The position numbers were made by a program, and so were the translations under genes. Below are positions 4,062 through 22,196 of a DNA stretch of 64,000 nt, one piece after another. This DNA comes from Eledone cirrhosa (Eukaryota): assembly GCA_964016885.1 (NCBI GenBank), contig OZ024742.1, forward strand, positions 332,134,001-332,198,000. Reading direction: 5' to 3'. Each line of letters starts with the position of its first letter. Position 1 is the stretch's first letter. The notes beneath the pieces are model-generated. The model searched no databases, was not told the DNA's origin, and saw only the letters and a program-made list of their open reading frames with translations.

Positions 4062-4567
<506 letters not shown>

Positions 4568-6243: not shown

Positions 6244-9045
<2,802 letters not shown>

Positions 9046-9759: not shown

Positions 9760-11400
9760 ATATATATAATGGTATTATAATGAAATAGTATGATAGAATA
9801 TTAAATTCTAAGTGTTAATTGAACAAGTACTTTCATGCTTTCGCAATCTTCAGGTTCATGATATGTGGTGACAGTCGAGTTTGCAATTTTCAACTGTAAT
9901 GAGATGGGTAAATTTCCTACCTTTTATACATTTTATACAGAGAAAAGTGGCTCCAGAATGCAAAGCCCTGTAAACTGTATTTCGACCAATCAGTGTGTAG
10001 TTTCACTGAATTACTACAGCTGATTGGTTTAAGCGTCACGGCTGGTTGAGCATGCTAACGACCAATAGTCATACCCAACGTATCAATTGTTTTGCTTTTT
10101 GAAATGATGAAAATAGCATTTTCTATTAATCATCACCATCAACATCACTTTTATTATTATTATTATTGTTGTTGTTGTTGTTGTTGTTGTTAGTGGTCGT
10201 GGTCATAGTGGTAGTAGAAGTAATACCCCTAGGCGTTATTATTGTTCATTTAGCTTGGGTTTGAATTTATCAATAAAATTCTTTTCTTTGATTTTTCTCT
10301 TGATTTCACTTGGGCTGTGTAATTTGTAGAATGGGAATATTATAAATATTCCCTGACCACATGTTGTCAGGTGGCCGCTTAGGGGTATCTGACGGACATT
10401 TGGGTCTCTGATTTGTTGACGGTGTACCCTTGCACGTTCCGATAGTGCATTTCCAGTTTGACCGACATATAGTTCTTCACAATTCGGGCATTTAATGCAG
10501 TAAATTAGATTTCTGCTTTTGCAGTTCATATTTGCATTTGGGAATATTTTTCCAGTTTTTGTTTTCATATATTGACCGGCGTGTATGGATTGACATGTGC
10601 CGCATCGATTATCATTGCATTTAGATACAGTGAACTTTGCTTTTGTTAGCAATTGCTTCAAATTTTTTGGCTGTCTTTTACTAAGAGTCAAAGATCGATC
10701 TGTGATTAAGCCTTTTATTCATTACTTTGAGCAATGATCGGTAGGTTTGCTTTGGCAGTGTTGAAGATATTCTGGTGACATGGGTTGTGTGTCATTATAA
10801 ATGGTATGACCAGTTCTTGGTTTCTTCTTCCTTGGGTTGTTCTAAGTTGTTGTATATGTATTTTTATAGCCCGCTGTATGCCATTTTCTATAAGTAGAGA
10901 TGGGTATTTTTGTTTGAGCAAAAATTCTCTTAGTTCTGTTAGGCGTTTGTACCTGGTATTCGTATCTTCTACAATGGTACAAATTCTTCTGGCTAGGCAG
11001 TATGGGATGTTGCGTTTTGTATGAGGTGGATGGCACGACTTAAAATTCAGATATTGATGGGTGTCTGTGTGTTTATAATATATATCCGTGGTAATGGTGG
11101 TGTCGTTTTTGATTATCATTATATCTATGAATGGTAATTTGGTCCTACTCATCTCTTTTGTGAATTGGAGAGATGGGTGTAGGTTATTCAGGAGGATATT
11201 GAACTCATCCAGAGTATCTAGAGATTCTGTCCAGATGATGAAACAGTCGTCAAGGTATTTCTTCCAAGATTTTTCAATGTACTTTCTAAAGTCAGTACTA
11301 TATTTTTCCTCTATTTCTTGGTAGAGTTGTTGTTCTAAGTATCCCATTACAGAGTTCGCGTAAACGGGAGAAAACTTCGTTCCCATCGCTGTGCCTTGTA
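9760..11400 (-). mobile_element. 5'-truncated Penelope-like element (Neptune-type): RT C-terminal half, Cys linker, GIY-YIG endonuclease and pLTR with HHR
   Basis: ORF 10715-11386 has QGTAMGTKFSPVYAN, YLDD, YYKHTDTHQYL, SCHPPHTKRNIPY. ORF 10239-10691 has CNDNRCGTC, NLIYCIKC, YVGQT, KPKLN. The two ORFs are separated by a disruption. The 3' boundary is approximate. Confidence 0.92.
9820..9858 (-). ncRNA. Minimal hammerhead ribozyme in the PLE pLTR
   Basis: Minus strand reads TGAAC-CTGAAGA-TTGC gaaa GCAT-GAAA-GTAC-TT-GTTCA; palindromic stem III AGTACT. Confidence 0.85.
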
Positions 11401-12853
11401 CTAGACACAGAGCTCTGGTTAGATACCATTAACAACCAAAAACAAATCCTCCATTCCCATTATGCCAAACCCATGACTTCCAAACATCTGATCCACCGAA
11501 ACTCGGCCATTTCGGACCATACCAAAATCAACATACTGATTGCGGATTTGGTACGGGTGATGAGAAATGTGTCCCGCATGTGCAACCCCGAAGAACTAGA
11601 GAGACACATACAACACTTCATCCACCGTATGCAGTTCTCTGGCTACAATCAGAGAGATAGAATCAGAGTGTATAAAGGAGCCAGAACCAAATGGGAAAAA
11701 ATGGTAAATAATGACATAAATGGGACCTGCCCCTTGTATAGGAGCACATTTTGGAATAGAATAGAAAGAACTAGGAACAAGGCCAATAGAATAAACTCAT
11801 GGTATGATAGCAATAAATACCAGAGTGTAATGTTCATCAATACAACCCCTAGAGGCGAACTAGCCTACAAATTTAGAAGGGCCCTAAATAAACATAATCT
11901 CAATATTAAGATAGTAGAAAGACCTGGTACCTCCGTAAAAACACTTATTAGCAAGACATACCCGTTCCAAAGACCCTCATGTATAGATAAGAAATGTATA
12001 ACCTGTAAAATAAGCCCCCATATTAACTGTAAAACTAGAAATGTAGTGTATAGCATAAGATGTACTGAAGGACAATGTAGAAACAAAAATATAGTGTACA
12101 TAGGTGAGACAGCTCGTAGTATAGGGGAACGAATAAATGAACACTGGCGAGACCTCCAAGATAATAAAGAATCATCTGTGCTCTACCAACATGCTAAGAT
12201 AGAACACAGGGGTAGATTAGAGAGCATAGAAATAAAAATAGAATCCACGCACAGAAAAGACGCAATGTTTAGGCAAAATACAGAGGCAGTAAGCATAAAA
12301 GAATTAAAACCAAAATTAAATAGAAAATATGAGTGGAACAGCAACATCACAACTTACAATTAAGGACAAAATGAAAACACACACACACATAGAACAAACA
12401 ACTTACAATTGAAAACACACACAAAATGAAAACACACACAGGACAAAATGAAAACACACACACACATAGAACAAACAACCAACCAACAATAAATAAATAA
12501 ATAAATAAACAAATAGAAAAATGAACACAAACACACACAGACACCCGGATGTGGCGCATGCGCAAACTGAGCACACAACACACACACAGAAACAAAATGG
12601 CGTAGGATAGAAGAAAGAAAAGGCACAGAAACGAAGAAAGGAATCCCCAGTCACTGAAGAGGTCACAGAGTGTGTGACGAAAGGACTATGACTATATATA
12701 TAAACAACTATCTGGTTGTGGAACCAACCAACCAACCAGAAATTTATAAGTTTGTAGATTTGTAAATTTATAAATTTATAAATATATAATAAATTGAAGT
12801 GAAAGCAACTGGTGCGTGTGTTTCTTATTGGCAACATGACCCTCCCAAAGTAT

Positions 12854-12904: not shown

Positions 12905-13285
12905 TAAGTATGTTTTGAAACAGCGAGCAGGTTTGAAATTAGTAAATAGAATAACTTTCAACGTATTTTTGACTAAAGAAATGTTAGCCTGATAATGGGG
13001 TTTATTTAGAACCCTCAGATAAATGGAAAAAGATGCGTATTGACGTACATGGGAGTCGAACCCACATATTTGGTTATCCAGACCACTGTGCTACCATTAC
13101 ACCAACACATCACCCATGTGTTGGTGTAATGGTAGCACAGTGGTCTGGATAACCAAATATGTGGGTTCGACTCCCATGTACGTCAATACGCATCTTTTTC
13201 CATTTATCTGAGGATTCTAAACCCCATTATCAGGCTAACATTTCTTTAGTCAAAAATACGGTGAAAGTTATTCTATTTTCTAATA
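12902..13285. mobile_element. Head-to-head palindrome of a tRNA-headed SINE (arms 12939-13110 and 13116-13285; tail 12902-12938)
   Basis: A box tggtgtaatgg and B box ggttcgactcc (13164-13174) occur in each arm; 5-nt loop; shorter palindromic relatives at 59021 and 60788. Confidence 0.85.
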
Positions 13286-20195: not shown

Positions 20196-20215
20196 TCAAC
20201 GTGCAGTGCACAAAC

Positions 20216-20268
<53 letters not shown>

Positions 20269-20338
20269 CAATTTATCGTTTATATATATTTATCAATTTA
20301 TCGTTTTCGGTATGCCTGACCGATTTAACTCACTCAAT

Positions 20339-20346
20339 ATGCAAAT
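20339..20346 (+). promoter_or_regulatory. Octamer motif ATGCAAAT (present in each 466-bp unit)
   Basis: Exact octamer ~80 bp upstream of each HHR; function not shown. Confidence 0.35.
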
Positions 20347-20419
20347 TAGGCTGCTCAGCCGTTAATTTTCATAAGGAAAGTATATACTTTCGAACGTTCA
20401 ACTATCTGGCAGATGGGTA

Positions 20420-20464
20420 AACGGTGCTGATGATAGCTAACAAGCTTGAAACTAGTACATCGTT
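20420..20464 (+). ncRNA. Canonical minimal type-I hammerhead ribozyme, unit 1
   Basis: AACGGTG-CTGATGA-TAGCT aaca AGCTT-GAAA-CTAG-TA-CATCGTT; GUA cleavage triplet; palindromic stem III ACTAGT. Confidence 0.92.
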
Positions 20465-20885
20465 CCTGTGTCAGTGTTGAACAAAAAGGTGACGTGGTTG
20501 CCTTAACACCGTATGGCATAAATTCAGGCTGTTCAGTTTGTTTACAAACGAACAAAGCGACGTTAGCGCCGCTAAACTGATACGTGCATATATGTATGTG
20601 TACCTGTATGCATATGTATGTATATATGTATATATATATATATATGTGCATGCTACTGTACGTCTGTATACATATATGTATGTACGTATGCATGCATACT
20701 TACATTTAAGTAAGTGCCATACTAAGAGTGAGAAATGAAATTTCGTTTTCATTTTGTTTCAATTTATCGTTTTCGGTATGCCTGACCGATTTAACTCACT
20801 CAATATGCAAATTAGGCTGCTCAGCCGTTAATTTTCATAAGGAAAGTATATACTTTCGAACGTTCAACTATCTGGCAGATGGGTA

Positions 20886-20930
20886 AACGGTGCTGATGAT
20901 AGCTAACAAGCTTGAAACTAGTACATCGTT
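20886..20930 (+). ncRNA. Hammerhead ribozyme, unit 2
   Basis: Same sequence as unit 1, offset +466. Confidence 0.92.
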
Positions 20931-21351
20931 CCTGTGTCAGTGTTGAACAAAAAGGTGACGTGGTTGCCTTAACACCGTATGGCATAAATTCAGGCTGTTC
21001 AGTTTGTTTACAAACGAACAAAGCGACGTTAGCGCCGCTAAACTGATACGTGCATATATGTATGTGTACCTGTATGCATATGTATGTATATATGTATATA
21101 TATATATATATGTGCATGCTACTGTACGTCTGTATACATATATGTATGTACGTATGCATGCATACTTACATTTAAGTAAGTGCCATACTAAGAGTGAGAA
21201 ATGAAATTTCGTTTTCATTTTGTTTCAATTTATCGTTTTCGGTATGCCTGACCGATTTAACTCACTCAATATGCAAATTAGGCTGCTCAGCCGTTAATTT
21301 TCATAAGGAAAGTATATACTTTCGAACGTTCAACTATCTGGCAGATGGGTA

Positions 21352-21396
21352 AACGGTGCTGATGATAGCTAACAAGCTTGAAACTAGTACATCGTT
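21352..21396 (+). ncRNA. Hammerhead ribozyme, unit 3
   Basis: Same sequence as unit 1, offset +932. Confidence 0.92.
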
Positions 21397-21817
21397 CCTG
21401 TGTCAGTGTTGAACAAAAAGGTGACGTGGTTGCCTTAACACCGTATGGCATAAATTCAGGCTGTTCAGTTTGTTTACAAACGAACAAAGCGACGTTAGCG
21501 CCGCTAAACTGATACGTGCATATATGTATGTGTACCTGTATGCATATGTATGTATATATGTATATATATATATATATGTGCATGCTACTGTACGTCTGTA
21601 TACATATATGTATGTACGTATGCATGCATACTTACATTTAAGTAAGTGCCATACTAAGAGTGAGAAATGAAATTTCGTTTTCATTTTGTTTCAATTTATC
21701 GTTTTCGGTATGCCTGACCGATTTAACTCACTCAATATGCAAATTAGGCTGCTCAGCCGTTAATTTTCATAAGGAAAGTATATACTTTCGAACGTTCAAC
21801 TATCTGGCAGATGGGTA

Positions 21818-21862
21818 AACGGTGCTGATGATAGCTAACAAGCTTGAAACTAGTACATCGTT
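21818..21862 (+). ncRNA. Hammerhead ribozyme, unit 4
   Basis: Same sequence as unit 1, offset +1398. Confidence 0.92.
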
Positions 21863-22196
21863 CCTGTGTCAGTGTTGAACAAAAAGGTGACGTGGTTGCC
21901 TTAACACCGTATGGCATAAATTCAGGCTGTTCAGTTTGTTTACAAACGAACAAAGCGACGTTAGCGCCGCTAAACTGATACGTGCATATATGTATGTGTA
22001 CCTGTATGCATATGTATGTATATATGTATATATATATATATATGTGCATGCTACTGTACGTCTGTATACATATATGTATGTACGTATGCATGCATACTTA
22101 CATTTAAGTAAGTGCCATACTAAGAGTGAGAAATGAAATTTCGTTTTCATTTTGTTTCAATATATATATATATAATTTTTGTGCATTGCACGTTGC

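Follow-up and report, generated by a model that had tools for sequence, protein, structure and literature searches.

The array and its family

The window analyzed here is a 64,000-nucleotide stretch of the Eledone cirrhosa genome (contig OZ024742.1, positions 332,134,001 to 332,198,000, forward strand). It contains a tandem array, the parts of which are listed below with a solitary member of a sister family.

20293..22161, + strand: retrozyme insertion made up of four identical units of 466 bp and a further 5 nt, a single tail-bearing arm without an inverted arm
20256..20292, + strand: 5' junction; short duplicated stub of the unit start between (TA)n runs, period 25, two copies
22162..22175 (3' side) and 20218-20268 (5' side), no strand: (TA)n target site
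20338..20349 (also 20804, 21270, and 21736), + strand: U6-type upstream element TATGCAAATTAG, containing the octamer
20381..20387, + strand: TATA-like box; spacing from the first base of the upstream element, 43 nt
20396..20482, + strand: stem I extension enclosing the ribozyme; covariation in the inner helices, outer helix formed by 20396-20402 and 20476-20482
20420..20464, + strand: type I hammerhead with a palindromic stem III; predicted cut after 20457 (also 20923, 21389, and 21855)
20580..20705, + strand: self-complementary TA/TG-rich stretch, the main source of unit-length variation between insertions
22093..22106 (20695-20708 in unit 1), + strand: short 3' end, a putative second priming site, at which the inverted arms of other insertions stop
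22107..22161, + strand: 55-nt tail with T4 runs and a 3' hairpin (22131-22152); (TA)n follows the long 3' end at 22161
4080..4460, + strand: solitary family C copy; hammerhead with a G-C-rich stem II at 4255, upstream element partly deleted

Identity at a period of 466 spans 20293-22161. As originally predicted, there are exactly four identical units, which start at 20293, 20759, 21225, and 21691 and show 0 differences in six pairwise comparisons. The tandem organization is backed by 86 unit-to-unit junctions at 50 other loci and in the window. The array was also correctly described as embedded in (TA)n with a short repeat of its first bases; (TA)n lies on either side, and the array start recurs in a 25-bp duplication at 20256-20306. 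All four units carry a G at 20690 and equivalent positions, an allele present in 9/408 units counted at 120 loci. Unit positions below are numbered from window position 20298, such that the 3' end of an insertion is 466 and the cut is 160/161.

Among open reading frames (ORFs) passing a low-complexity filter, none of at least 120 aa overlaps the array, in agreement with the earlier remark that it holds no real ORF; an ORF with reverse transcriptase (RT) and a GIY-YIG endonuclease, as in autonomous Penelope-like elements (PLEs), was not found in it. The GC content is 0.35-0.37. The 466-nt monomer folds at -156 kcal/mol (z -7.2, 0/100 shuffles), which is partly owed to the TA-rich stretch, and Rfam microRNA matches on that stretch were all far below the cut-offs. 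Three diverged copies of ACGTGCARTGCAC lie at 20199, 22181, and 22246, in alternating orientation, between the (TA)n runs flanking the array. We rejected this trio as a recent target duplication; it was absent from every other locus examined.

The family was sized by exact pattern searches of the 3.0-Gb genome. A ribozyme pattern of 40 nt gave 10,122 matches and a promoter pattern of 23 nt gave 16,734, versus 0 for the reversed control of either one; the 3' junction of the window's subfamily gave 1,029 exact matches. The array had been regarded as the strongest single candidate for an undescribed system; instead, it is one insertion of a family of more than 10,000 units in the described retrozyme class. 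Judged by its sequence, in which each feature expected of such an element was found, the array is almost certainly a young and abundant non-LTR retrozyme. The loci read in detail, 50 picked by the ribozyme pattern and 80 by the 3' junction, were all among the first matches listed on contig C1.

Sister families were retrieved with a pattern that placed the upstream element 60-90 nt before CTGATGA and excluded most of the window's family (983 matches, 0 reversed). This pattern imposed the element and the core and left the TATA box and the downstream ribozyme stems free. Thirty loci were sorted into the window's family and a relative (5), family B (5), family C (14), and family D (6). Family B is a 467-bp tandem family, the insertions of which have two 3' ends approximately 70 nt apart with a tail at one end only, and family C consists mostly of solitary copies. 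The element-bearing families are approximately 50% alike between the upstream element and the hammerhead core.

Other repeats occur in the window. Two tRNA-like copies (Rfam tRNA, 48 and 41 bits) lie head to head at 13041-13185 as a near-perfect palindrome, which probably represents a tRNA-derived repeat carrying an inverted arm. A broken PLE ORF with GIY-YIG occupies 10242-11428 on the minus strand, with a hammerhead-like motif 3' of the ORF at 9853 (minus). Hammerhead-core-like motifs at 2649, 2945, 3076, 12654, 58627, 60646, 61234, and 61574 include several near-identical pairs, and some are probably the ends of other PLE families. An RT ORF was found at 39030-40865 on the plus strand (RVT_1, E 3e-30), fragments of another RT element at 7436-8929, and a degenerate (TA)n tract of 6.7 kb at 40943-47667.

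Words of the unit (0.72-0.98) were present in sequencing runs X3-X8, from three studies under three organism labels. Contigs in X7 match parts of the unit exactly (33 records in X7, 0 in X6). The two runs guessed as RNA gave 0 records and 5 records confined to the TA-rich stretch, which says nothing on expression. None of the sequencing-run matches listed spanned a unit junction with 31 nt to either side of it.

Hammerhead ribozyme and upstream element

The hammerhead consists of stem I (AACGGUG/CAUCGUU, 7 bp including one G-U, 20420-26 paired with 20458-64), the core CUGAUGA at 20427, a 4-bp stem II (AGCU/AGCU), GAAA, the palindrome ACUAGU, and a GUA site. A canonical minimal ribozyme had been claimed for each unit; the hammerhead is present in all four, but is not fully canonical, with a U-U at the base of stem II. 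Rfam gave no match for the array at the gathering level, the best being Hammerhead_HH9 at 18.5 bits (E 0.16, gathering score 52). In predicted folds, the active form of a single ribozyme is at -2.0 kcal/mol versus -9.5 for the inactive lowest-energy fold, while two ribozymes sharing the palindrome are at -18.7 versus -20.0 kcal/mol. Among 28 distinct hammerheads of related families, 20 retain at least 6/7 stem I pairs and 20 have a palindromic stem III, with five different palindromes. Across 11 aligned relatives, 12/18 predicted pairs are altered on both sides; relatedness inflates such counts, and this level was reached by 0/500 shuffles and 0/6 slid controls. The original prediction of a minimal hammerhead that cleaves as a dimer gains support from this covariation as far as the dimer-type structure is concerned; cleavage itself is predicted. 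For Xenopus retrozymes, 8/9 dimers were reported as uncleaved (bioRxiv 2026.07.22.740005). Two older relatives differ at stem II, which is G-C-rich in L276 and gone altogether in L250, where the core, palindrome, and stem I are retained.

The octamer ATGCAAAT, noted previously as lying approximately 80 bp upstream, is at 20339, 80 nt before the hammerhead core. The host U6 genes (L163 and L164), tandem U6 genes (L165-168), the best U6atac match (L229), and RNase MRP (L235) have a TATGCAAATKAG-like element at -77 to -79 and TATA at -30. This element was present in 8/16 host loci examined and was absent from L169-170, five weaker U6atac matches (L230-234), and RNase P. A matrix from five host genes, built after the match had been noticed, gave TATGCAAATTAG 17.4 bits (leave-one-out, 13.2-19.7), a score equalled by 0/123,762 background positions and 3/5,000 shuffles. 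The octamer forms the core of this host element, and at least four diverged hammerhead families retain the octamer-containing element. A TATA-like box, on which the search pattern placed no condition, is present downstream of the element in 11/13 representatives scored. Based on host spacing, Pol III is predicted to start at approximately 20411-20416; the next T4 run after this point is at 20746.

The octamer had also been proposed for comparison with host snRNA promoters. This comparison gave a divided result: the U1/U2 element was unmatched, and that of U6/U6atac/MRP was matched. Host U1/U2 genes have a TCAGT element at approximately -56, and we rejected a newt-like Pol II promoter of this type (best score 3.6 bits versus 9.5-23.6 in leave-one-out); the exact octamer was found upstream of only 1/11 host U1/U2 loci. 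The RNase P RNA gene (L236) has a TCAGT element of the U1/U2 type and not the U6 type, which suggests that RNase P RNA is transcribed by Pol II. The U1, U2, and U6 genes (L151-L178) are in tandem arrays.

On sequence grounds, we consider the element likely to be a working Pol III promoter. Rather less likely, it is not one, but a newt-like Pol II promoter, an RNA element, or a relic, with passive transcription of the units. The element-to-TATA spacing, which is 43 nt here and 41-45 nt in most sister families, is 4-6 nt below the 47-49 nt of host genes and speaks for this second reading, as does the outer conserved helix, which takes in bases 5' of the predicted start. Newt satellite 2, with its snRNA-type Pol II promoter, provides a precedent (PMC2220036, PMC6765202). 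However, the mismatch with the host U1/U2 element and the TATA-like box in 11/13 representatives argue against it, and older, partly decayed copies (L267-L270) have the host-like spacing of 48.

Insertion ends, candidate enzyme, and template

In the 50 ribozyme-picked loci and the window, 41/42 terminal ends halt at one place, followed by (TA)n, and 86 further unit ends run on into the next unit. A head-to-head inverted arm was found by alignment in 57/80 junction-picked loci and by eye in six more (63/80). Fifty-one of the 57 aligned inverted arms stop at positions 402-411 and not at 466, within 9 nt of the short 3' end, again in (TA)n; among those stopping elsewhere, two run past the fetched stretch. 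Based on these end counts, each arm of an insertion has its own fixed 3' end, the two lying 55 nt apart. A survey of permutation points had been proposed with the original prediction; freely permuted ends were rejected on the same counts. The 5' ends of the arms are variable: tail arms have at least four units in 14/80 loci and inverted arms in 10/57, while the tail arm is a bare tail in 11/80 junction-picked loci. The window array keeps the tail arm only, four units long. Both flanks of the insertions, inspected for a target-site duplication longer than 4 bp, are (TA)n.

The family therefore shows the PLE-type characters of a one-ended tail, an inverted 5'-truncated arm, variable 5' truncation, and a microsatellite target. 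The one-ended tail with an inverted arm has been described for PLEs (Craig et al., bioRxiv 2021.04.23.441226). In PLEs, priming takes place at two neighboring internal sites that bracket the tail, and two internal reverse-transcription starts with nicking and extension of both target strands have been obtained in vitro (PMC11167929). We consider it very probable that PLE machinery inserts the retrozyme.

In the junction-picked set, 5' ends appeared to be enriched 3' of the cut (19/247 passes at 161-190 versus 5/228 at 131-160, p=0.007), with a window width chosen after inspection. This excess was not replicated in 49 ribozyme-picked loci (0 versus 5), where selection disfavours such ends. Since the second locus set was without the excess, we treat an accumulation of 5' ends at the cut as unproven. 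At three loci (L045:4533-4600, L106, and L126), arms of different (TA)n-targeting elements are joined head to head, which suggests that the two primers are able to copy two different RNAs.

Pieces of Hydra-type PLE ORFs occur in 23/120 loci and pieces like the PLE of L065 in 7/120. Three of the 120 loci have retrozyme sequence fused to Hydra-type ORF DNA without intervening (TA)n: the units run into a young Hydra-type ORF in L034, the ORF runs into a unit in L031, and the tail arm is head to head with another Hydra-type family in L147. The three fusions break at unrelated unit positions. L114 was left out because (TA)n separates its parts. These joins could also be explained by later deletion between neighbors. 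The young Hydra-type family is represented by 150 scored matches that are 96-100% identical in protein, many with open frames of approximately 820 codons. Pfam assigned no family to the candidate donor (L209-L218); motifs read in its translation, a C-terminal endonuclease, a CxCx5C linker, DKT, and no CCHH, together with a hammerhead and a (TA)n target, agree with the Hydra clade as described in the available text of Craig et al. Hydra elements are generally under 3 kb in that description, and the candidate monomer is 3,703 nt, with an intact ORF of 800 aa. This young Hydra-type PLE shows the same two-end anatomy; its ends, one on each arm, fall approximately 45 and 135 nt 3' of the cut in its own hammerhead. 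In blastn, the unit had no similarity to the Hydra-type pLTR at L034 and L045, and the tail of that PLE is approximately 90 nt versus 55 nt in the retrozyme; for these two reasons, this PLE was not pinned as the donor. A Hydra-clade PLE is nonetheless the donor that we moderately favor. Our first guess, Naiad, was discarded, given that Naiads carry their endonuclease at the N-terminus and lack a hammerhead in the available account of Craig et al.

The unit might also be the pLTR of an autonomous PLE and the loci its 5'-truncated copies. In Xenopus, 24/57 retrozyme families match annotated TEs, nearly all of them PLE termini (bioRxiv 2026.07.22.740005), and our reading covered 120 loci of the retrozyme family and, for PLEs, 20 full-length loci from a single family. 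Nevertheless, arrays of up to 12 turns pass from unit to unit with no ORF, the ORF fusions break at unrelated positions, and no similarity was found to the pLTR in L034/L045. We regard a pLTR origin as highly improbable.

The sequences of the units bear on the template. Cut-to-cut units are identical in 274/488 pairs within young insertions and 82/130 across arms, versus 379/13,708 between insertions. Thirty arrays of at least three units (two of which are one locus) have 23 different modal haplotypes, common to both arms, and L130 (8/8) and L093 (4/4) each have private alleles that are fixed across the two arms. Most within-array variants are confined to one unit and few occur in subsets. A sister-family array has 12/12 identical units. 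Insertion by rolling reverse transcription, as originally proposed, fits this unit identity within and across arms, from which arrays look copied from one monomer. We infer that one monomer was copied repeatedly by both primers, the simplest such template being a circle, and we consider it fairly probable that a circular monomer is the usual template. Repeated jumping on one cleaved linear monomer would give the same pattern. L066, with 8 haplotypes in 14 units, L076, L008, L120, and L125 are mosaic; therefore, one circle is insufficient for these arrays. Unit lengths in L008 alternate (484/502/484), and L077 changes part-way from units of 460 nt to units of 466 nt, the pattern expected of a template switch.

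A linear template used by the same element and PLE enzyme, with uncleaved read-through multimers or jumps between linear monomers and a minor role of the ribozyme in insertion, is possible, albeit on balance unlikely. Uncleaved RNA was the main substrate in vitro, where an anole PLE used it and the ribozyme was dispensable (PMC11167929). Mosaic arrays (L066/L076 and L008) would follow from such a template, and long homogeneous arrays (L091, L097, and L107) are possible donors. However, an array cannot lengthen by linear copying, yet the 30 arrays have 23 modal haplotypes common to both arms. Long Pol III read-through must also repeatedly pass four T4 runs per unit (and one T7 in the older L008/L056), and the structure of the ribozyme is conserved through compensatory changes.

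Monomer insertions may alternatively have grown into arrays later by unequal exchange or gene conversion, as proposed for vertebrate retrozymes (bioRxiv 2026.07.22.740005), or been homogenized by assembly; unit number and identity were read from the assembly here. This is improbable considering that both arms are often multimeric with one haplotype, variants are mostly in single units, and unit numbers and haplotypes differ from locus to locus.

Known systems and proposed mechanism

The promoter of schistosome hammerhead repeats consists of tRNA-like boxes, whereas that proposed here matches the host upstream U6-type element with TATA. These SINE-like repeats of Schistosoma have a Pol III promoter and then a hammerhead, and likewise need tandem copies to keep the promoter (PMC6765202, PMC2220036). 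Newt satellite 2 is a tandem hammerhead repeat with an in-unit snRNA-type promoter and dimer cleavage (PMC2220036, PMC6765202, PMC7229834); its promoter is Pol II, whereas the present unit matches the host U6/MRP element and not U1/U2.

Metazoan non-LTR retrozymes are short tandem type I hammerhead units of low GC with no ORF and a self-paired monomer; circles were shown and PLE mobilization was proposed (Cervera and de la Pena 2020, PMC7229834). Circular RNA was demonstrated there, whereas circles are predicted for the present family. A palindromic stem III also occurs in axolotl HHR_Amex1 and a U-U at the base of stem II in HHR_Amex2 (PMC7229834). The unit of 466 bp exceeds the range of 150-450 in PMC7229834 and lies inside that of 51-972 in bioRxiv 2026.07.22.740005. 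The promoter, two-ended tail, and clonal head-to-head arms found here are not described for metazoan retrozymes in the available text of PMC7229834. Vertebrate retrozymes are likewise non-autonomous, PLE-linked, and range from monomer to multimer (Li, Clavereau, Pollet, bioRxiv 10.64898/2026.07.22.740005). Their PLE link comes from co-occurrence and pLTR similarity, whereas ours comes from junctions and fusions; unlike vertebrate retrozymes, the present family has no pLTR similarity to the one PLE family compared.

Two starts, a one-ended tail, and an inverted truncated arm are shared with PLEs (Frangieh et al. 2024, PMC11167929; Craig et al.), as is the target, which is AT-rich or (TA)n in PLEs and (TA)n in the retrozyme. 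Unlike PLEs, the retrozyme encodes nothing, and its tail is 55 nt versus the typical 30-40 (PMC11167929; bioRxiv 2021.04.23.441226). Its putative start sites are approximately 250 and 305 nt 3' of the cut and both of its arms can be multimeric, in contrast to PLEs. Our literature search, beyond which lay subscription papers, Repbase, Dfam, and supplements, returned no report in which a retrozyme was linked to a U6-type promoter or to the tail signature. An entry for the family, or for a cephalopod retrozyme, may already exist in Repbase, Dfam, or supplements. The two-ended PLE signature, clonal units across arms, and the U6-type element go beyond the papers searched.

The two-ended PLE signature and the match to the U6 element make Pol III transcription likely, as well as the copying of a circle by a borrowed Penelope enzyme. 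The explanation to which we incline, with some reserve, is a young non-autonomous hammerhead retrozyme with Pol III/U6-type transcription, a cut and circularized 466-nt monomer, and PLE insertion into (TA)n. Pol III would start approximately 45 nt before the cut site, from the U6-type promoter inside each unit, and the transcript would pass the weak T4 runs as far as the next ribozyme. Paired ribozymes would then cut the transcript into a 466-nt monomer, for which ligation into a circle is predicted. A plain Pol III transcript would lose the promoter, whereas the cut-to-cut monomer would carry that of the next unit. A dimer of PLE protein would nick both (TA)n strands and prime two cDNAs at the two fixed sites; each cDNA would make between zero and twelve rounds of the template before the two were joined at their 5' ends. 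In the copy in the window, the tail arm alone would have been retained after four turns.

More tentatively, we speculate that such families form a superfamily of RNA-circle retroelements, in which ribozyme cutting and circularization solve the problem of the U6 promoter and each insertion is the record of two Penelope RTs that rolled round one circle, starting at two fixed sites. The transcription of retrozymes and their inserting enzyme were previously argued from co-occurrence and similarity, and circular and linear RNA are both candidate templates of PLEs. The present family offers junction-level evidence for PLE insertion, a named candidate promoter, exact starts, a young and intact candidate enzyme, and more than 1,000 recent insertions. 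With its junctions, promoter, starts, and enzyme, each step may be tested in vitro using a 466-nt RNA. If the speculation is true, the 55-nt tail region would be a small portable signal that writes any RNA circle into (TA)n, and PLEs themselves, with their own starts approximately 45 and 135 nt 3' of the cut, would normally copy circular templates.
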